64,000 nucleotides of DNA from an uncultured Nitrososphaerota archaeon. Lineage in GTDB: Archaea; Thermoproteota; Nitrososphaeria; Nitrososphaerales; Gagatemarchaeaceae. A program made the translations under genes and the position numbers. The stretch spans positions 800,001 through 864,000 of the forward strand of contig OY969807.1 in NCBI GenBank assembly GCA_963703285.1. Reading direction: 5' to 3'. The notes beneath the pieces are model-generated. The model was given only the letters and a program-made list of their open reading frames with translations. It did not search any database and was not told the origin of the DNA. Below, one piece after another: positions 31,418-43,409 of the stretch. Position 1 is the stretch's first letter. The number at the start of each line of letters is the position of its first letter.

Positions 31418-32256
31418 CGCCGGCTCGTGGTGTCGTCGTTCCTTTGGTTCTTTGGGCCGAGGACGGTCGCTGCCTTCAGCGACCTGACGTACCCCTCGAC
31501 CTCCGAGAGCATCGCGTCCCGAGGCTTGCCCGATGCCACCCTGTTCACGATGCCGCTCCCCACGATGACAGCGTCCGCCCCGGCCGCTATCACACGGGCC
31601 ACGTGCTCCGGTTTGGAGATCCCAAAACCCACCGCCAAGGGGATCCTGCCTCTGGTCTGAAGCTTGGCTGACCTCACGAGTTTCAGCGAGTCGTCCGCCA
31701 GCGCGGAGCGCGCCCCCGTCACGCCTAGAAGCGAGACGAGATACAGGAAGCCAGACGAGTGGCTAACGAGTGACTTCATCCGCTCGGGGGACGTGGTCGG
31801 CGCGGCGAGCAGGATCGTGTCGAGGCCGCGGGACCTAGCCAACCTCGTGTAGGCCGCGGTCTCGTCGAGCGGGAGGTCGGGGATGATCAGGCCGTCGACC
31901 GACGCCCTCTTCGCCTTCTCTAGGAAGGATTCGAGTCCTGGCGAGAAGAGAATGTTGTAGTAGGTCATGATGGTGATGGGGGCTCTGTGCCGTTTGTTGA
32001 GGCGGGAGACGAGCTCCAGGACGTCGGCTGGCCTCGTCCTCGATGCCAACGCTCTGACGGCGGCCTCCTGGATGGACCTGCCGTCGGCGATGGGGTCTGA
32101 GAAGGGTATCCCGAGCTCGATGATGTCCGCGCCCCCGGCCACCAGCGCAGAGACGACCCTCTCGGTGGTCTCGATGTCGGGGTCCCCCGCCATCGTGTAG
32201 GCCACCAGGGCGCCCTCCCCCTTCAGGGAGCGGAAGGTCTCGGCGATTCTGCTCAT
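31414..32256 (-). CDS. trpA: Tryptophan synthase alpha chain
   Basis: [21 protein letters not shown] and VGFGI motifs. Confidence 0.97.
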
Positions 32257-33440
32257 AGTTCTAGCCCGGACCTCTTCGCGATTATCTGGACGTCCTTGTC
32301 GCCGCGTCCCGAGAGGGTGACGACTACCGACTCGTCCTTCTTCATCCTTGCGGCGAGCTTCACGGCATAAGCTATGGCGTGGGACGATTCCAGCGCGGGG
32401 ATTATCCCCTCCTTCGTCGAGAGCAGGTGGAACGCCTTCACCGCACCTTCGTCCGAGATGGAGACGTACTCGGCCCTCCCGCTGTCCCTCAGGAAGGAGT
32501 GCTCGGGACCGACCCCCGGATAGTCCAACCCAGCCGAGATGCTCTCAGTAGGGAGGATCTGTCCGTCGTCGTCCTGCAGGAGGTAGGTGAGCATCCCGTG
32601 GAGTACGCCCGGCCGCCCCTCGACCAGCGTTGCCGCGCTCTTCCCCCGCCCGGTCCCCCCTGCCTCGACGCCATAGAGCTTCACCGATTGGTCGTGGACG
32701 AAGGGGTGGAAGCTTCCCATGGCGTTGGACCCGCCGCCGACGCAGGCCACGATCGCGTCGGGTAGACCGCCCTCCTTTCTCCGAAACTGGCTCTTGACCT
32801 CCCTTCCTATGACGCTCTGGAAGTCCCTCACGATGATGGGGTACGGGTGCGGTCCGACCACCGAGCCGATGAGGTAGTAGGTCTCCTTCAGGTTGGTCAC
32901 CCAGTCCCTCATCGCCTCATTGATCGCGTCCTTGAGCGTCCGGGACCCGCTGTCGACGCTATGGACCTCTGCTCCCAGCAGTCGCATCCGGAAGACGTTG
33001 AGCTTCTGGCGTTCGACGTCCTCCGAACCCATGTAGACCTCAGCCTTCAGGCCGAGCATCGCGCAAGCCATAGCGGTGGCAACCCCATGCTGGCCGGCGC
33101 CCGTCTCGGCAATCACCCTTTGCTTGCCCATCCGCTTCGCGAGAAGGGCCTGGCCGAGCGTGTTGTTGATCTTGTGCGCGCCGCTGTGGAGGAGGTCCTC
33201 GCGCTTCAGGTATATCCTAGCGCCCCCGGCGTGGGCGGTCAGATTCTCCGCCAGGTACAGCGGGGTTGGCCTGCCGGCGTAGTCAGCCAGCAGGTGCGAG
33301 AGCTCCTTCTTGAAGGCGGGGTCATCGCGCAGCGAGAGGTAGGAACGTTCGAGCTCCTTCACGGCGGGCACTAGCGTCTCCGGTATGAACTGCCCGCCGT
33401 AGGCTCCGAACCGTCCCCTTCTTGGGTAGTCCCCTCTCAT
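32253..33440 (-). CDS. trpB: Tryptophan synthase beta chain (TrpB1)
   Basis: [28 protein letters not shown] and SGRGDKD motifs. ATG 33440. Confidence 0.97.
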
Positions 33441-34078
33441 CAGGGACCGGCCCCGCGCGCGCGACGGATGAACTCGGCAATCTTCTCGGTGTCCTTGACG
33501 CCCGGAGAGCTCTCGACCCCCGAGGAGACGTCCACGGCGAAGGGCCGCACGGTCTTGATGCCCTCGCCGACGTTGTCCGGGTTGAGCCCACCCGATAGGA
33601 TGAAGGGTATCGGCGCGACCTCGTCCCTGACACGACGGCAAGCGCTCCAGTCTGAGGTCATCCCCGTCCCTCCTTGAGACCCCTTCCTGTAGGTATCGGC
33701 GAGGAGCGCATCGAAGCCGAGGGCCGCTTCTTTCGCGGGCCGCGTCTCGCCAGAGCCGAGGAGCATGGGCCGAATGAGACTTACTCCGAGGGAGTGACGG
33801 ATGGCCTCTGGGTCGAGCCCTTCCCCGTAGAGTTGGAGGGTCCTGATGCCGGACTCCCGGACCGCGGATTCTTGATCCCTGACGTTCGTCGAGGTCGTGA
33901 CGAGGACGGACGAGACGAATGGGGGGACGCGTCGGGAGAGATCCGCAGCCCGCCGGATGGAGATGTTTCGCGGAGAAGAAGGGAACCCGCTGATGAAGCC
34001 CACCGCGTCGGCCCCCGCTGAGACGGCGGAGTCGACGTCCTCCTCGCGGGTGATGCCGCAGATCTTGACCCTGACCAC
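33440..34078 (-). CDS. trpF: Phosphoribosylanthranilate isomerase
   Basis: VKICGIT, GGTG, LSGGL and DVSSGVE motifs. Confidence 0.96.
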
Positions 34079-34828
34079 CTACTGCCCACCCACCAGGCCG
34101 CGGACGGCGGCCTCGGCGTCGCCGGACCTCATGAGGGCGGATCCGACTAGGAACCCGTCCGCCCCGAGAGACCTGAGCTCCTCCAGCTCCGCCCTCTTCG
34201 TGAGGCCGCTCTCGCAGACGACGGTCTTCGGGTGCCCGTGCCTCGCCAGCAGCGTCCGGGAAGTATCGAGCGACACGTCGAGGGTCCTGAGGTCCCGGTT
34301 GTTGATCCCCACCACGTCGGCCTGCGTCTGGAGCGACTCGACGTACTCGAGCTCCGTGTGGGCCTCGAGGAGCACCTCGAGGCCTCGCGAATGGGCGTGC
34401 TCGATCATGCGGTCGAGGGAGAAACCAGAGAGGCGCGCTCTGTAGATGATGTCCATCAGCAGAACGGCGTCCGCGCCCGCCCTCTCCGCGGCGTCTATCT
34501 GGACGGGGTCGATCACGATGTCCTTCATCAGGACCGGGATTCCGACGTTCCTCTTCACGGCGGTGAGATACTCCAGCCTCCCCTCGAAGTGCTTGGGCTC
34601 GGTCAGCACCGAGATAGCCGCGGCTCCCCCGCGCTGATATCTGAGAGCGAGATCGAGCAGGTCGCCTCCCCGCCTTAGCTGACCCTCCGAGGGAGAGCGG
34701 AACTTCACCTCTGCGATCAGCGGGAGCCCCCTCGCGCTCAGGATGGAGTCGCGGAGGCTCCTGCGGGGAAGATTGGACGTCTCGGCTTTGTAGTATCCCT
34801 CCGATATGGTCTGACGCGCTGACTCCAC
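34079..34828 (-). CDS. trpC: Indole-3-glycerol phosphate synthase
   Basis: [22 protein letters not shown] and ESG motifs. The natural start may be GTG 34851 with a one-base deletion. Confidence 0.95.
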
Positions 34829-34847
34829 GAGAGTTCCGACGAAGTCT

Positions 34848-35903
34848 TCACTGCCCCTGTGCGTAGACGCTCGCCTCCCTCAGCTCTCCCCCGCTGAAGC
34901 GAATAAGGCCTTCCAACTTCTTGTACGCGGCCCCGCTCTCGATGGATTCTCGAGCGAGCGGGACGGCCTCGCGGAACCCACTCGCCCTCCCGGAGACCAC
35001 GATCGCGGCCGCCGCGTTCACAAGCACCATGTCCAGCCTTGCCGACGGCTTGCTGGAGCCTCCGAGGATCTCGAGCGCGGCCCGAGCGCCCTCCTCGACG
35101 GACTCGACCGTCAGCGTCCCGTCCTTCTGCGTGCGCACTCCGAAGTCCGCCGGGGAGAGGTCGCCCGAGATAATCTCGCCGTCCTTCAGCCAGGCCACCG
35201 AGGTCTTACCCGTCACGGAGATCTCGTCCATGCCTTCAAGGGCGTGGATGACCATCGCCTCCTTCGTCCCGAGCTTCGCCAGCGCGCGGGCGACCTTCAT
35301 TGTGAGCGGGAGCGAGTAGACCCCGATTACCTGCGCGTCGGCGCCCGCCGGATTCATCAGCGGACCGAGCAGGTTGAAGATGGTCCTGATGCCCAGCTCC
35401 TTCCTGACGGGGGCCACGTTCTTCATCGCCGGATGGAACGCGGGCGCGAACATGAATCCGATGCCCACCTGCTCGATCGACGCCCTGACCTCCTCGTGGT
35501 CCATGGCCAGGTTGAAGCCGAGCCTCTCGAGCACGTCGGCGCTCCCGCATTTGCTCGTGACCGAACGGTTCCCGTGCTTGGCGACGGTCACGCCCGCGCC
35601 TGCCGCGACGATCGCCGAGAGGGTGCTCACGTTGAACGTCTTGACGCCGTCGCCACCAGTCCCGCACGTGTCGACGAGCCGGCCTCCCACCCTCGGACGG
35701 ATCTTCACCCCGTGGCTCCTGAAGGCCGAGGCGAACGACGCAATCTCCTCGGGGCTTTCTCCCTTGCCGCGCAGGGCAACGAGCAGCCCGGAGATCTGGG
35801 CGGGCGACGCCTGGGCGGTCACGATCTCCTCGAGCGCGCCGTGGATTTCGTGGGGGGCAAGGTCCCGCCCCTCGACGAGGCTCGCGATTGCCTGCTGGAT
35901 CAG
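34848..35903 (-). CDS. trpD: Anthranilate phosphoribosyltransferase
   Basis: DTCGTGGDG, NVST, KHGNR and GSAD motifs. The typical N-terminus (L)IQQAIASLVEGRDL begins at CTG 35903, overlapping the trpG TGA. Confidence 0.96.
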   Translation of the reverse strand: MIQQAIASLVEGRDLAPHEIHGALEEIVTAQASPAQISGLLVALRGKGESPEEIASFASAFRSHGVKIRPRVGGRLVDTCGTGGDGVKTFNVSTLSAIVAAGAGVTVAKHGNRSVTSKCGSADVLERLGFNLAMDHEEVRASIEQVGIGFMFAPAFHPAMKNVAPVRKELGIRTIFNLLGPLMNPAGADAQVIGVYSLPLTMKVARALAKLGTKEAMVIHALEGMDEISVTGKTSVAWLKDGEIISGDLSPADFGVRTQKDGTLTVESVEEGARAALEILGGSSKPSARLDMVLVNAAAAIVVSGRASGFREAVPLARESIESGAAYKKLEGLIRFSGGELREASVYAQGQ

Positions 35904-36490
35904 TGCTCTACACCCCTCTCCAGGAAGTTAGAGACGATCTTCTTGCCCTCGGGCGTCATTATCGATTCCGGGTGGTACTGGACCCCCTCGATCGGGTACT
36001 CGACGTGCCTGACGCCCATGACCTCCCCGTCGTCCATCGACAGGGCAGTGACCTTGAGGCAGTCCGGCACGTCCTGCTTCGCTATGACGAGCGAGTGGTA
36101 CCTGGTGGCCTCGAGCGGGTTGGCGACTCCTCGGAGGACGCCCCTCCCGTCGTGAACTATCCTGCTGGTCTTGCCGTGCATGAGGCGCGAGGCCCTCACG
36201 ACCCTCCCTCCGAAGGCCGCGCCTATGCCCTGATGGCCCAGGCAGACACCCAGCGTGGGCGTCTTCTTGCTCATGGATTTCAGCACGGACTGGCAGACGC
36301 CGAAGTAGTGCTCGTCCTCGGGGTTCCCGGGACCCGGAGAGATGATAATGCGGTCGGGCTCCAGGGCCTCGGCCTGCTCGAGCGTGATCCTGTCGTTCCT
36401 GTAGACGAGGGGGGACGCCCCCAGCTCGCCGACGTACTGGGCGAGGTTGTAGACGAAGGAGTCGTAGTTGTCGATGACGAGGACCCTCAT
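35900..36490 (-). CDS. trpG: Anthranilate synthase component II
   Basis: IDNYDSF, SPGPG, GVCLGHQ and QYHPES motifs. Confidence 0.96.
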   Translation of the reverse strand: MRVLVIDNYDSFVYNLAQYVGELGASPLVYRNDRITLEQAEALEPDRIIISPGPGNPEDEHYFGVCQSVLKSMSKKTPTLGVCLGHQGIGAAFGGRVVRASRLMHGKTSRIVHDGRGVLRGVANPLEATRYHSLVIAKQDVPDCLKVTALSMDDGEVMGVRHVEYPIEGVQYHPESIMTPEGKKIVSNFLERGVEH

Positions 36491-37863
36491 CTCGGACCAC
36501 CCGATGACTCGACGGCACGGAAGAGGGCCGCGGCCTTGTTCTCCGTCTCCTGCCATTCCTTCGACGGGTCGGAGTCGGCAACCACCCCGCCTCCCGCCTG
36601 GATGCTGCACCTCGTGCCGTTGGCCACGAGCGTCCGAATGGTTATGGCGAAGTCGGCGTTCCCGTTGAAGGAGATGTAACCGAGCGCGCCCCCGTAGGGG
36701 CCCCTGCGCGTGGGCTCGAGCTCCTCGATTATCTCCATCGCCCTGGGCTTGGGCGCGCCGGAGAGCGTCCCGGCCGGGAAGAGGGCGCGGAGCGCGTCGA
36801 ACGAGTCGTACTCCTCCCTGAGGTCGCCCGCGACCTTCGAGACGATGTGCTGGACGTGGCTGTACTGCTGGATCGTGAGGAGTTCCGGGACTTTCACGCT
36901 TCCGTATTTCGCGACCTTCCCGACGTCGTTCCTCCCAAGGTCGACGAGCATGACGTGCTCCGCCCTCTCCTTGGGGTCAGCAAGCAGCTCCCTGGTGAGG
37001 CGCTCGTTCTCCACCGGGTCTTCCGACCTTGGGGCGGTGCCCGCGATGGGGAAGCTCTCTATGCGCCTGTCCTCGATCCTGAGGAGCATCTCCGGGCTAG
37101 ACCCGATTATCCGCCTTTCGCCGAACCTCAGGAAGTACATGTACGGTGAGGGGTTGATGCGGCTGAGCTCGGAGTAGAACCTCATGAGGTCGCCGCTCGC
37201 CCGGAAGTCGTGGCGCTTGGACGGCACGACCTGGAAGATGTCCCCCGCGGCGATGTACTCCTTCGCCCGTGTGACGATGCCCTCGTAGTCTGCCTTCTCT
37301 ATGTTCGGCGTCCTCGGCCCGTGGTCGAGGCTCCCCATCTTCGCGCTTCGACCCAGGAGGCCCTTGACCGTCTCGGACCTGTCCTCCCCGAGCGTGCAGT
37401 AGCGCACCTCGCCTCGTGCGTGGTCGAAGGCGACCCCGTCGGTGTAGACGCCGAACTCCATGTCCGGGAGAAGGAGGTCGTCATTGGCCGCGCTCGGGAG
37501 CTCCTCCCAGTAGCGGACCGAGTCATAGGAGACGTAACCCACCGCTCCGCCGATGAACCGGTACGGGCCCCTCACCTTCGTTGGGCCCAGGGCGGCCCGA
37601 AGGTCCTCGAGCGGGTCTGAGGTCCTCCTTCGCTCGCGGCCTCCGCCGACCCTGTCGGTGATCTCGAGGTCTCCGTCCTTGACGCGGAAGGTCATCGCCG
37701 GCTCGAAGCCGATGAAGGAGTACTCGGCGAGCCTCGTCGCGCCCTTCGCGGACTCGAGCAGGAAGGCTTCCTCGAATTCCTCTTGGACCTTCAGGAAGAG
37801 CTGTTGGGGGGAGTCGGAAGTGTCGAGCCTATCGGTCCTCAGACCGGACGACTGTAGAGTCAC
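36487..37863 (-). CDS. trpE: Anthranilate synthase component I
   Basis: FLLES, NPSPYM, SSPE, PIAGT, EHVMLVDLGRND and PAGTLSGAPK motifs. Start GTG 37863 is inferred. Confidence 0.96.
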   Translation of the reverse strand: MTLQSSGLRTDRLDTSDSPQQLFLKVQEEFEEAFLLESAKGATRLAEYSFIGFEPAMTFRVKDGDLEITDRVGGGRERRRTSDPLEDLRAALGPTKVRGPYRFIGGAVGYVSYDSVRYWEELPSAANDDLLLPDMEFGVYTDGVAFDHARGEVRYCTLGEDRSETVKGLLGRSAKMGSLDHGPRTPNIEKADYEGIVTRAKEYIAAGDIFQVVPSKRHDFRASGDLMRFYSELSRINPSPYMYFLRFGERRIIGSSPEMLLRIEDRRIESFPIAGTAPRSEDPVENERLTRELLADPKERAEHVMLVDLGRNDVGKVAKYGSVKVPELLTIQQYSHVQHIVSKVAGDLREEYDSFDALRALFPAGTLSGAPKPRAMEIIEELEPTRRGPYGGALGYISFNGNADFAITIRTLVANGTRCSIQAGGGVVADSDPSKEWQETENKAAALFRAVESSGGPR

Positions 37864-38255
37864 CGGAGCGCCAAAGATAGCCACCCATGCTTTTCGCCAA
37901 GGACAGTTGCCCGGATAGCCGTATTTATAGATGTTGTCGGTCATGCATAACAGTCCTAATACGTACATCCATCCGTCATAACTCAGGCCACCGAAGGACC
38001 CAGTTCGGTTGACGGTTTACGCGCGTCACAAAAGCTGAGCTACTGAGAGGTAGCTTAGGCCATCTGTAAGGAGCAATGCCCGAAGGACTGTAGTGAAGCA
38101 TGTCGAGTCATGCTCACATAACTCAGACACACATCAGAATGGCCGTCCTAGACAATAGGACTATCTACCTTCAGCGACTATAAGCACCCACGACAATCAG
38201 CGTCATTCGGACAAACGTACTAATGACGACTGTCCACTCTGAATGCCGACCTGAC

Positions 38256-38741
38256 GTGATAACGCAAAGACGGGCAATTGGAAAAGCAGTTATTGCCATA
38301 ATTGCGCTCACAGTCGTTATAGTCGGCGCAATAAGCGTCATCGCACTTACATCGCGTACAACTACTGGTACAATCATTGCCATTGGAACCTGCACACTTG
38401 GATCAGCATCCGCAGGGCCTCAAAGCCAGAGCACGGGCAACTACTACATCCAAGTCAATTACGCTGGACAGTGGAATTCACAGATACAGGGCTTCTCCTC
38501 ATTAAAGGAGAGTCTTGGCACCCTCACAGTGAATCAGTGCTTACCTAGCAGTGGAAACGCTACATTCGTCGTTCCAAACTGGAATCCAACCGGCGAGTCA
38601 TACCTGTGCGCTTGGGCGAGCAAATTCGACTCCAGCAACGGTATTTTGACCGTCTCGGTCAGTTATGGAGCCGCAACCCAATCGAAGAGCACTGGTGCGC
38701 CATATGGCAGCGCGATAGCCTGTCTCAGTGTCGCACCCTAA
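38256..38741 (+). CDS. Secreted or membrane-anchored hypothetical protein with a class III (prepilin-like) signal peptide
   Basis: QRRA|IGKAVIAIIALTVVIVG N-terminus, S/T/G-rich beta domain, four Cys; lower GC than the flanks. Confidence 0.65.
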   Translation: MITQRRAIGKAVIAIIALTVVIVGAISVIALTSRTTTGTIIAIGTCTLGSASAGPQSQSTGNYYIQVNYAGQWNSQIQGFSSLKESLGTLTVNQCLPSSGNATFVVPNWNPTGESYLCAWASKFDSSNGILTVSVSYGAATQSKSTGAPYGSAIACLSVAP

Positions 38742-38916
38742 GTTCGGAGAGAATGAGATGGCCACTCTACACTACGGTATGTAGGGCTGGGCGTCCACAG
38801 CCGTAAGGTTTGGACTCCCGAAGGTGAAAGTCGTCTGGCGTGTTCGACTCCGAGCAGGGTCCAGTCGGGGCGAGTTAGAGGCGGTTCCGAAGCCAGACAG
38901 AAGCAGAACTGACTTC

Positions 38917-39123
38917 TCACCGTCTGGCTCTATTGACCAACAAGTACACAGCTAGACCTACAAGCATAAGGAGAACAAAGAACCCAATACCAAAGATGAT
39001 TGTCAAGCCTAGACCCATCACACCCAGATAGGCAGAACTTGAAGTCAATGCGAGCAATACAAAGACAACTGCCAACGCTCCAACAAATGCTGCAAAATAC
39101 CTTATGTCTCTAATCACATTCAT
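38917..39123 (-). CDS. Small two-TM membrane protein (68 aa)
   Basis: MNVIRDIRYFAAF...; two hydrophobic helices; TATATA about 32 nt upstream. Confidence 0.65.
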   Translation of the reverse strand: MNVIRDIRYFAAFVGALAVVFVLLALTSSSAYLGVMGLGLTIIFGIGFFVLLMLVGLAVYLLVNRARR

Positions 39124-39212
39124 TGGAATCCTTCTGTACTGGATACCCGCGACGTATATACGAATTACGACACGGAATTCATGCATCTGACGCACAAGAA
39201 GAGGACGGAGGA

Positions 39213-39354
39213 CGTAGGGGTTAAAGCCCGGTGATGCGAAAGTATCACGCCGGGTTGGGAGGGAGGGTGCGTGCTTCCTGCCCGAAGTGATTTGGGCGTG
39301 GCAGCGCACTCTTACCTCAGGACAGAAACAAGAAGGTCCTAGACCTGATCTACG
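39213..39354 (+). ncRNA. Candidate structured ncRNA (four-way junction, two GNRA tetraloops)
   Basis: Manual folding: P1 39213-22/39342-54; P2 39225-56 (GAAA loop); P3 39259-318 (GTGA loop); P4 39319-40. G-U pairs favour the + strand. Confidence 0.6.
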
Positions 39355-39384
39355 AGCCCGACCGAGCCCCGATTGCGGATATAA

Positions 39385-39422
39385 TTCATATCCACCTCTC
39401 TTCTTTTTTTAATCGATTTTTG
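39385..39422 (+). repeat. Pyrimidine/T-rich direct repeat, copy 1 (putative terminator)
   Basis: TTCATATCCACCTCTCTTCTTTTTTTAATCGATTTTTG, near-identical to 40032-40069. Confidence 0.7.
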
Positions 39423-39671
39423 AGCCCCTTCTTCCGGGTGTAAGTTTTGCAGGAAGCATCCCGAAGCCCAAGCAACCTTGCAACAGGATTAAGCAACGAA
39501 AGGATGGAGGCGCAGCGAAGTTACTCGCTTGTGCCGAGCCAGCCACGTCTCCCTTGGACGAATCCTTAAGAAACGCCTTTCCATTTTGAACTTCATCATT
39601 GACAACGGCAAACTTGACTATCATGCGCCAAAATCAATCCCCCTCCATGCAAAGGTTGGTGTGACAAAAGA

Positions 39672-39887
39672 GTGGGCATCTGGTATCCCGGTCCGTTCGG
39701 ACATGAGAGCATCGGGAGATGCAGAGGGTGTGGAAAGATAACTAAAAACGTACATGAATGTGAGAAATGCAATGCCGTGTACTGCGATGATTGCGCGCAC
39801 AAGCTAAACGACCGGTGTGCTGTCATAGCGGGCCCCGACTCGAGATGCAACGGCAGAATATACGATCTTTCAAGGCGAATGATCTAG
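39672..39887 (+). CDS. Small Cys-rich zinc-finger protein (71 aa)
   Basis: CRGC...CEKC..YCDDC...C...C pattern. Confidence 0.6.
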   Translation: MGIWYPGPFGHESIGRCRGCGKITKNVHECEKCNAVYCDDCAHKLNDRCAVIAGPDSRCNGRIYDLSRRMI

Positions 39888-40031
39888 ACATTCTACGCTC
39901 CATCCGTCTTCGTGGCGAGCTATCAGTGGAGCAGTCGTCTGCCGATTCCACGGCCGCAAGATGAAGCCTCGCGCCTCAAAAAGCCGCACGGGCAGATATG
40001 CTACGCGCAGTGGTTTTATTCTTCATTTCTC

Positions 40032-40069
40032 TTCATATCCGCCTCTCTTCTTTTTTGAACGATTTTTTG
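40032..40069 (+). repeat. Pyrimidine/T-rich direct repeat, copy 2 (putative terminator)
   Basis: TTCATATCCGCCTCTCTTCTTTTTTGAACGATTTTTTG. Confidence 0.7.
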
Positions 40070-40102
40070 GCTCTCTGAAGAACTATTGGAATGTCATATG
40101 AG

Positions 40103-40255
40103 CTAGCCAAGAACCTTGAAACCCTCTTCCAGATCAAAATTATATCCTATCGCCTCCCAGAAACCGGCAGACTTGGTGTCGGTTGCCCAGATTCTATCAA
40201 ATCCGCAATCACACAGATACTCTTCTATGTCTTCAACCAACCTTCGGCCGACGCT
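40103..40255 (-). pseudogene. C-terminal fragment of a GNAT acetyltransferase
   Basis: Manual translation: SVGRRLVEDIEEYLCDCGFDRIWATDTKSAGFWEAIGYNF...* (GNAT motif A/B-like). No N-terminal part. Confidence 0.55.
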
Positions 40256-40389
40256 CCTCCCGGCTTCTGGACCACGTAGGCCAGATGGATTTCGGCATCC
40301 CCGTCGTGAGCTGCGATCGCGATCGCAAAGTCTAGGGCGCGGACCGACTCCTCAGAGCCGTCGTATCCCACGAGGATCCTACGCACCAT
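40225..40389 (-). pseudogene. Truncated universal stress protein (UspA N-terminus only)
   Basis: MVRRILVGYDGSEESVRALDFAIAIA...IHLAYVV, then stop at 54 aa. Confidence 0.8.
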
Positions 40390-40522
40390 TCTGCTCGCAC
40401 TTCCTCAAATCACACCGTCAGCCTCAATTTCTCTGTAGATTGGACTGGAAGAATCAACTCACTCTTCACCTAGGAGAGGACGTGAAGCGACATCTCCTTC
40501 ATTGTCTCGCACGAGCGTTATT

Positions 40523-40605
40523 AACGTAACGCTAGTTACACTTTCTGATTGCGTCCGATCTCCTTCTTCTACCGCATCTATGGCTTCTCCGGTCGTGTCT
40601 GCGTT
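40523..40605. repeat. About 80-bp direct repeat, copy 1 (37-bp identical core containing a GTAA-N6-TTAC palindrome)
   Basis: AACGTAACGCTAGTTACACTTTCTGATTGCGTCCGAT is identical at 40523-40559 and 43330-43366, followed by a similar ATGGCTTCTCCGGTCnTGTCTGCGTT. Confidence 0.9.
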
Positions 40606-40847
40606 CTTCAGATTCATTTACCGAAAGTGTACGGGTTGAAGCTAACCGGCTTCGAACCCAAAACGCCGCAAGTGGTAAGAATTTCTTACTGTGCGTTTCG
40701 AACCCAAATGGGGCTGGACCCTCCGGGCCCGCTAACAATTAGCGCAGAATTGACGCCGATTAGCTTAAAGAGTCAAATTCTGGCGATTCTATCGCCAATT
40801 CAACTCCGCAAGTCTCGAATTGGAACACCAATGGTCAAAGGAAGACG

Positions 40848-41096
40848 ATGCGAAAAAGGGTCGAGCTTCAGCTCAAGCTACTCTGGTACGAACAGGGAAT
40901 CGACGGGATGAGTGATGGAGAAATAGGGCTAATGGCTAAGAGATTTGCCGTCAAGGACTATAGGGTCGCTCTTCGAGACAGGGGCGTTCTCTATGACCAG
41001 AAGGAAGACCTTTGGAAATATCTGCTGTTAGAGCCGAAGACGAACGTTAAGAGGAGGAAGCAATACGAGAGTCGGTATGTCAGCAAAGAACAGTAA
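40848..41096 (+). CDS. Small hypothetical protein
   Basis: 82-aa ORF with protein-like composition. Confidence 0.45.
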   Translation: MRKRVELQLKLLWYEQGIDGMSDGEIGLMAKRFAVKDYRVALRDRGVLYDQKEDLWKYLLLEPKTNVKRRKQYESRYVSKEQ

Positions 41097-41412
41097 GGAG
41101 GCGCTGCGACTAGACCTTTCCAGCTCTCATTTGGTTCAACAGTTCGAGAACCGCAAGGTGGCATGGTCCGCGTCCTCAAGGAAGATTGCGCCAGGACGCC
41201 CCGTATCTTCTCCGGTTCGGCCAGGTCGCTTACCCCGGTCTTGCCGGGCCTGCCGGGACGAGGCATCATCTCGGGCTAACTTAGTCTGACGCCCGGTTCC
41301 TGCAGCAAACCAGAGACGAGCGTTCCGATTGCTCGAGACGCGGAACCGCGAGGCTGAGTGTGGACTGATAGCCATATAATAAGGCCTGTTTGGCGGACCG
41401 GCCAGGCTTGAA

Positions 41413-43329: not shown

Positions 43330-43409
43330 AACGTAACGCTAGTTACACTTTCTGATTGCGTCCGATACTTCCTCTATCTATCGATGGCTTCTCCGGTCCT
43401 GTCTGCGTT
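43330..43409. repeat. About 80-bp direct repeat, copy 2 (overlaps the MFS 3' end)
   Basis: Matches copy 1 at 40523-40605. Confidence 0.9.

Follow-up and report, generated by a model that had tools for sequence, protein, structure and literature searches.

Identification of a structured RNA element in a Nitrososphaerota genome as the probable 3′ end of a group II intron relic

Whether positions 39185–39422 of a 64,000-nt stretch of DNA from an uncultured Nitrososphaerota archaeon (the whole stretch is termed the window) encode a new type of RNA was the question raised by a sequence-only reading, which had described there a novel, stand-alone noncoding RNA built from four helices (P1 to P4) meeting in a four-way junction, and possibly derived from a mobile element. 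All of the strings quoted in that description were found where it had placed them. Folding of the 238-nt stretch gave a minimum free energy (MFE) of −90.4 kcal/mol, compared with −73.7 ± 5.1 kcal/mol for 200 dinucleotide shuffles (z −3.29), and none of the 200 shuffles (0/200) folded as well. The reading was correct in seeing structured RNA on the + strand, with G-U pairs and loops of the GNRA type.

The identity of the element was explored by comparing the whole window with Rfam 15 at gathering thresholds. Two matches were obtained, one of them to the group II intron family Intron_gpII (RF00029) at 39222–39320 on the + strand (45.5 bits, cut-off 40, E 1e-05 for the window), spanning model positions 1–77 of 77. 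The suspected origin from a mobile element was borne out by this match to a group II intron family. The claim of novelty fell with it, the element passing the gathering score of a curated family, and an Rfam match being the outcome that the reading itself had named as counting against it. In the whole genome, which is one 2.25-Mb contig, two further RF00029 matches were present at 57.1 bits each; the element in the window and these two are termed copies A, B, and C, respectively. Copy A occupies 38021–39320 (1300 nt), and its features are collected in Table 1, where P2 and P3 appear as domains V and VI of the intron.

Within domain VI, A39314 is bulged, lying unpaired between two helices and seventh from the last intron base, and is the putative branch-site adenosine. 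The last intron bases are AG at 39319–39320 (CCUCAG). Conservation of this region was studied in an alignment of nine copies drawn from seven genomes. The partners expected in domains V and VI were paired in 97.9% of 339 cells, as against 38–52% when the partners were slid. All 14 pairs of domain V (14/14) were kept in 9/9 copies, with one G-C to A-U double change, and both A39314 and the final AG were invariant across the nine. The check in homologues that the reading had proposed therefore upheld the pairing of P2 and P3, while covariation was thin, with changes on both sides in three pairs and four cells only, because the aligned copies are ~ 90% alike. All nine aligned copies end in CCU(C/U)AG with divergence starting right after, and the homology of copy C ends at the same place as 39320, within one shared base. 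In the full copies, the segment corresponding to 39173–39223 begins ~ 6 nt after the stop codon of a reverse transcriptase (RT) gene and, from a reading of the copy B sequence rather than a computed fold, would pair with the sequence just upstream of that gene.

The four-helix model was upheld in part. P2 and P3 are present in the MFE structure and are kept in 9/9 copies, but P1 (39213–39222 with 39342–39354; 5 + 4 bp) and P4 (39319–39323 with 39336–39340) lie outside both the MFE and the centroid structures and are complementary strings only. P4 straddles the 3′ end of the intron at 39320, and the 3′ strand of P1 is exon coding sequence beyond that point. The DNA downstream of 39320 is related to that of the window in only 3/9 aligned copies (A, B, and one from the genome designated G020), the 3′ flank being unrelated in the other 6/9 and in copy C. 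With the 3′ strands of P1 and P4 placed in an exon that most copies do not share, there is no conserved four-way junction, and P1–P4 are not conserved together in the homologues. Two helices are real and conserved, and the other two are accidental pairings that cross the splice site. The proposed stand-alone RNA gene fared no better, as P1 and P4 join intron to exon and the T tract is the terminator of the interrupted gene. The TATATA at 39155–39160 is present as described, but it is unconserved and lies inside the damaged interior of the intron; the oligo-T tract at 39401–39421 is likewise present, and is conserved together with a hairpin, but it ends an ArdC-like gene and not a small RNA. 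A novel stand-alone four-way-junction RNA was ruled out by the RF00029 match together with the exon location of the 3′ strands of P1 and P4.

The nature of the sequence beyond the splice site was revealed by related genomes, in which the 104 nt past 39320 recur alone, starting exactly at the splice site. Four empty sites were found (one in G010, two loci in G001, and one in G014), and at each the sequence of 39321–39424 directly follows MCMRVL/LCMRVL coding sequence, so that the frame reads (L/M)CMRVL, then DRTKKVLDLIY and onward to a stop codon, followed by the hairpin and T-run. The uninterrupted genes of relatives end in RVLDRTKKVLDLIYTPN before the stop codon, and the spliced copy B gene ends in RVLDRTKKVLDLIYAT before its own; the remnant in the window has CGA in place of the TGA stop of the relatives. 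The host gene scored 23.9 bits against ArdcN (cut-off 22.6) and contains a HELGH motif. Copy B is inserted in the same ArdC-like gene, and joining of its exons restores the frame. Precise insertion was accordingly found in copy B and, as far as its 3′ exon goes, in copy A, whose 5′ exon is unmatched: the 5′ flank of copy A (37969–38020, beside trpE) is not the host gene. Trans-splicing was rejected because tblastn returned no further fragment of the host gene from any part of the genome. A scan for bacterial-type promoters and terminators gave nothing above shuffled sequence, which has little meaning in an archaeal host. The hairpin-end/T-run module occurs a second time (92%) at 40032–40067, where it is 97% identical to the module in G010; similar short matches also occur in several related genomes, which looks like a dispersed terminator cassette.

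Table 1. Features of copy A and of the adjoining exon, in window coordinates.
Feature	Position	Strand	Basis or remark
Intron 5′ end (GCGCG...) and first domain I helices	38021–38093	+	Sharp boundary, three copies
Insert of ~ 680 nt in domain I hairpin loop, carrying ORF172	38094–38774	+	
Conserved domain I block, sole part of ribozyme body kept	38775–38870	+	nhmmer profile
Interior of ~ 300 nt replacing distal domain I, domains II–III and RT gene	38871–39172		No profile match
3′ strand of domain IV base and linker to domain V	39173–39223	+	Nearly invariant, nine copies
Domain V (P2)	39224–39257	+	RF00029 alignment
Domain V, AGC triad	39225–39227	+	
Domain V, GAAA loop	39238–39241	+	
Domain V, CG bulge	39248–39249	+	
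Domain VI (P3)	39259–39318	+	RF00029 alignment
3′ exon remnant, last 14 codons of ArdC-like gene	39321–39365	+	In-frame reading DRNKKVLDLIYEPDR
Host-gene terminator (hairpin 39375–39395, T-runs 39401–39421)	39375–39421	+	Conserved in G010, G001 (two loci), and G014

Copies B and C were used as the reference for an intact element. The two are 3315 bp long and 100% identical, and their flanks are unrelated. Each carries within the intron a gene for a 600-residue protein with RVT_1 (1.2e-39), GIIM (2.5e-10), and HNH (4.5e-5) domains, which scored 352.9 bits on the group II RT/maturase model TIGR04416 (cut-off 300), and for which the nearest solved structure is the group II maturase/RT 6me0 (5.6e-56). 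With two identical copies at unrelated sites, the retroelement looks active. All three copies in the genome start with GCGCGTCAC at a sharp boundary and have unrelated 5′ flanks, and the 5′ segment was also found in G014, G032, G023, and G004. The full copies B and C and their relatives have body domains I–III in common. The Rfam D1–D4 families gave only a sub-threshold match on full copy B (19.2 bits, E 2.7), located just upstream of the RT gene. Of the 61 genomes searched, 14 (one of them the window's own) had matches to the intron DNA, and these 14 belong without exception to the family of the window's genome; two close relatives of the RT come from metagenome-assembled genomes labelled Candidatus Gagatemarchaeum stordalenia and uncultured Nitrososphaerota archaeon. 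The 5′ motif of the intron was not matched in viral contigs. In one related genome (locus L050, G014:C8:1202800–1210400), two full-length introns of the family stand in tandem in the same orientation, separated by ~ 380 nt; only one of the two has an insert in domain I.

The extent of the ribozyme body in copy A was assessed with an nhmmer profile built from five full-length introns, which covers 643 positions, beginning at the domain I block and stopping where the RT gene starts. The profile matched the window at positions 3–99 only (E 2.2e-24), the next match having E 3.7, and ~ 540 of the 643 positions are thus missing from copy A. The 96-nt block that is matched is 82–85% identical to copy B, and the 3′ segment 39173–39320 is 89% identical to it. 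No Rfam D1–D4 family was detected in the window at E ≤ 1, and domains I–III were accordingly not found as a set in copy A. No RT was detected in the window loci by tblastn with the copy B protein. Among the 61 genomes searched, DNA matching the interior at 38871–39172 was found nowhere but at the window's own locus. On the opposite strand of this gutted interior lies ORF68 (38920–39123, −), with 68 residues and two hydrophobic segments; it belongs to no Pfam family and has no homologue in the 61 genomes bar one match at E 0.004, and it may be spurious.

One interpretation of these data, which we consider very likely, is that 39185–39422 represents the 3′ end of a group II intron (domain IV base, domains V and VI, and the splice site at 39320/39321) followed by ~ 100 nt of ArdC-like exon, and that copy A as a whole is a dead relic. 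Copy A would then be a non-autonomous, internally gutted intron that has kept its 5′ end, a cargo ORF in the domain I loop, ~ 96 nt of domain I, and domains V–VI, and has lost the rest of domain I, domains II–III, and the RT gene. The exon-binding sites in such introns sit in the part of domain I that is missing here. Lacking the RT, most of domains I–III, and a meaningful 5′ exon, copy A is read as inactive debris: it most likely neither splices nor moves, and would be a leftover of a retroelement that still appears active as copies B and C. The family membership of domains V and VI, the boundaries, the empty sites, and the loss of the body and of the RT are shown by the data; the inactivity of copy A is inferred. 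Two features fit this reading less comfortably. The domain V–VI tail of copy A shows no decay, domain V matching the family consensus letter for letter and every pair of the two domains being intact, and the clean 5′ intron end beside an unrelated flank is unlike the result of a random deletion. We infer that recombination or rearrangement between intron copies made copy A, since this would explain why, at a break in synteny, the intron ends are clean and the exons do not match. The absence of the ribozyme body is judged from homology searches (nhmmer and cmscan), so that a very divergent replacement body in 38871–39172 is formally conceivable, and the tail of copy A may, as far as its sequence indicates, retain some residual role.

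It could be that copy A is instead a working ORF-less intron, spliced and mobilized in trans by the RT/maturase of copies B and C. ORF-less group II derivatives served by the intron-encoded protein (IEP) of a relative are known, and copy A resembles them in having no RT gene, intact termini, and two RT-encoding relatives in the same genome, as well as an exact consensus domain V and a well-kept domain VI. However, ORF-less group II introns keep all six RNA domains, while copy A is without most of domains I–III, given that ~ 540/643 profile positions after the domain I block and up to the RT gene are missing and that no D1–D4 Rfam match was obtained. Its 5′ exon is, moreover, unrelated to the host gene, and its 3′ exon is a remnant that has lost the stop codon. 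With such mismatched exons, splicing of copy A would join nothing meaningful, and a working intron at this site seems very improbable.

The unusual architecture of the locus might also be an assembly chimera produced by the collapse of repeated intron pieces, and three repeat families do meet here (the intron 5′ end, the domain I block, and domains V–VI). The repeats, however, share just 82–89% identity with copies B and C, a divergence at which collapse would not be easy, and the genome was assembled as a single 2.25-Mb contig. Public contigs from four runs of one study, which may share a campaign with the assembly and so are not fully independent of it, covered parts of the locus in 13 pieces, 12 of which showed no other letter and the remaining one at most one. 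These contigs bridge 38021 (records 1 and 6) and 39320 (record 5), and run through the interior at 38860–39145 (records 9, 11, and 13). The stretch 39146–39226 is without cover by any public contig, so that the junction between the unusual interior and domain V comes from this assembly alone. Taken as a whole, a chimera is scarcely credible.

The insert in copy A carries ORF172 (38223–38741, +), whose product has a hydrophobic N-terminal segment (Kyte–Doolittle 3.0). The structure model (mean pLDDT 55) shows a helix at residues 15–43 and a beta-sandwich at 73–170, a membrane helix followed by a beta-sandwich thus being predicted at modest confidence. Comparison with Pfam and NCBIfam identified no family, and in a Foldseek comparison with the PDB nothing reached E ≤ 0.001; the top match (2.6e-03), to a membrane-anchored beta-sandwich protein, was not relied on. 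A homology search returned four relatives besides ORF172 itself, none of them named; homologues in G001 and G014 are 83–85% identical. Comparison with the G001 orthologue gave a dN/dS of 0.79 from few changes (11 synonymous and 27 non-synonymous), from which purifying selection on ORF172 is not clear.

The presence of this ORF bears on a further possibility, namely that the tail of copy A has been reused, either as a separate small RNA (domains V–VI acting in trans) or as the structured 3′ end and terminator of the ORF172 mRNA. The folding z-score of the element, the TATATA 60 nt upstream, and the conserved hairpin/T-run terminator downstream would all fit such a role, and ORF172 stays open in three genomes. 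The TATATA, however, sits in DNA without a homologue, P1 and P4 are unconserved, and the terminator is accounted for by the old host gene. Furthermore, the ORF172 homologue in G014 has only ~ 36 and ~ 60 nt of intron flanks, with no domains V–VI within 1.5 kb downstream, and the ORF172 gene therefore does not need the tail of copy A; the ORF172 locus in G001 ends at a contig edge. We hold reuse of the tail to be very unlikely, and retain the intron relic as the preferred reading.

The hairpin that holds the insert was further studied across the family. It lies ~ 70 nt from the 5′ end of the intron and reads CUGC-GNRA-GCAG in relatives without an insert (G032, G014a, and G023); insert-bearing copies keep the stem, for example as CUGUAG...CUACAG, and hold 350–760 nt in the loop. 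Eight distinct genome copies could be read on both sides of the hairpin, and an insert was present in five of these (A, B/C, G014b, G031, and G011), while a pattern scan of metagenome contigs returned 26 loci, 11 with an insert and 15 without. An ORF with a hydrophobic N terminus was found in all five genome inserts (5/5), with values of 2.3–3.0 in a 19-residue hydropathy window, and G032 has a sixth such ORF, with hydropathy in the same range, at a second site before domain IV. The same was true of 9/11 metagenome inserts; the insert of L070 was read for 78 nt only, and that of L077 has no such ORF. The cargo ORFs fall into several unrelated sequence types (loci L007 381–1049, L050, L053, L018, and L051; metagenome loci L061–L080). 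ORF223 gave sub-threshold, chance-level matches only in Pfam and NCBIfam.

The cargo moved with the intron, since copies B and C do not differ over this part although their loci are unrelated. On balance, these data favour the view that an archaeal (Nitrososphaerota-type) lineage of group II introns carries a second, non-RT gene in its domain I loop, which encodes diverse small proteins with an N-terminal membrane anchor, is copied with the intron, and can outlive the ribozyme, ORF172 in copy A being an example. A non-exhaustive search of the literature found no natural non-RT cargo in domain I, and such cargo is not mentioned in the accessible portion of a group II intron review (PMC4424553). 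If the proposal is true, retro-mobile introns with membrane-protein genes would be natural gene-delivery vehicles in archaea.

The setting of copy A is a low-GC patch at 37969–41412 (GC 0.50–0.51, compared with ~ 0.62), which lies between trpE and a PhoU_div/phosphate-transporter pair (phoU/pit genes). The two sides of the patch are far apart in G014 and G018 and are on different contigs in G001, G010, and G002; because they are not adjacent in relatives, the patch is a synteny break. Other features of the region were also noted. An apparently complete tryptophan operon (trpB to trpE, named by translations) occupies 32253–37968 on the − strand and ends at the intron relic. Inside the patch, 39672–39887 encodes a Cys-rich ORF of 71 residues with no Pfam family. 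An 83-nt direct repeat, 89% identical, is present at 40523–40605 and 43330–43409. Farther away, at 59505–59598 (−), ARAGORN reported a tRNA of 94 nt to which it assigned no type and which has a four-letter anticodon (gtcg); it overlaps an Rfam tRNA match at 59514–59571 (34.1 bits) and may be an intron-containing archaeal tRNA.

In itself, the element is a finding of low novelty, an ordinary relic of a known kind of intron. Its analysis removes a false novel ribozyme and puts an exact annotation in its place (intron tail, splice site, exon remnant, and terminator), marks a rearrangement point beside the trp operon, and documents active-looking group II introns, along with the remains of such introns, in a group of soil archaea. 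In the accessible text of a 2022 survey of complete genomes (PMC8919778), Methanomicrobia and Thermoplasmatota hold most of the archaeal group II introns, with few elsewhere, and the available portion of a 2021 review of prokaryotic RTs (PMC8632793) states that group II introns predominate among the RT types of TACK archaea.

The family shares many features with RF00029 introns and, in particular, with the IEP-bearing chloroplast-like/IIB-type introns represented by that of Thermosynechococcus (PDB 6me0). The 34-nt domain V with its AGC triad, 2-nt bulge, and GNRA loop is the same, as are the bulged A of domain VI placed 7 nt from the end, the RT, maturase, and HNH domains of the full copies, and the exact insertion into a gene of which uninterrupted versions exist at other loci. 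By contrast, the 5′ end here is GCGCG and not GUGYG, and domain VI is long, at 60 nt. A chloroplast-like/IIB class is suggested by the best PDB match, as a lead and not from a tree. A review of group II introns describes, in its accessible part, the majority of bacterial copies as truncated or inactivated, and as frequently having other mobile DNA around them (Zimmerly & Semper 2015, PMC4424553). Copy A is like the truncated bacterial copies described in that text in its lost RT, its incomplete ribozyme, its low-GC patch with repeat debris, and the break in synteny. It differs from them in that it shows no simple 5′ truncation, both termini having been kept and the middle replaced, and in that its host is an archaeon, with close relatives labelled Nitrososphaerota and Ca. 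Gagatemarchaeum. The relic is, in this respect, an ordinary kind of object in a less-charted group of hosts.
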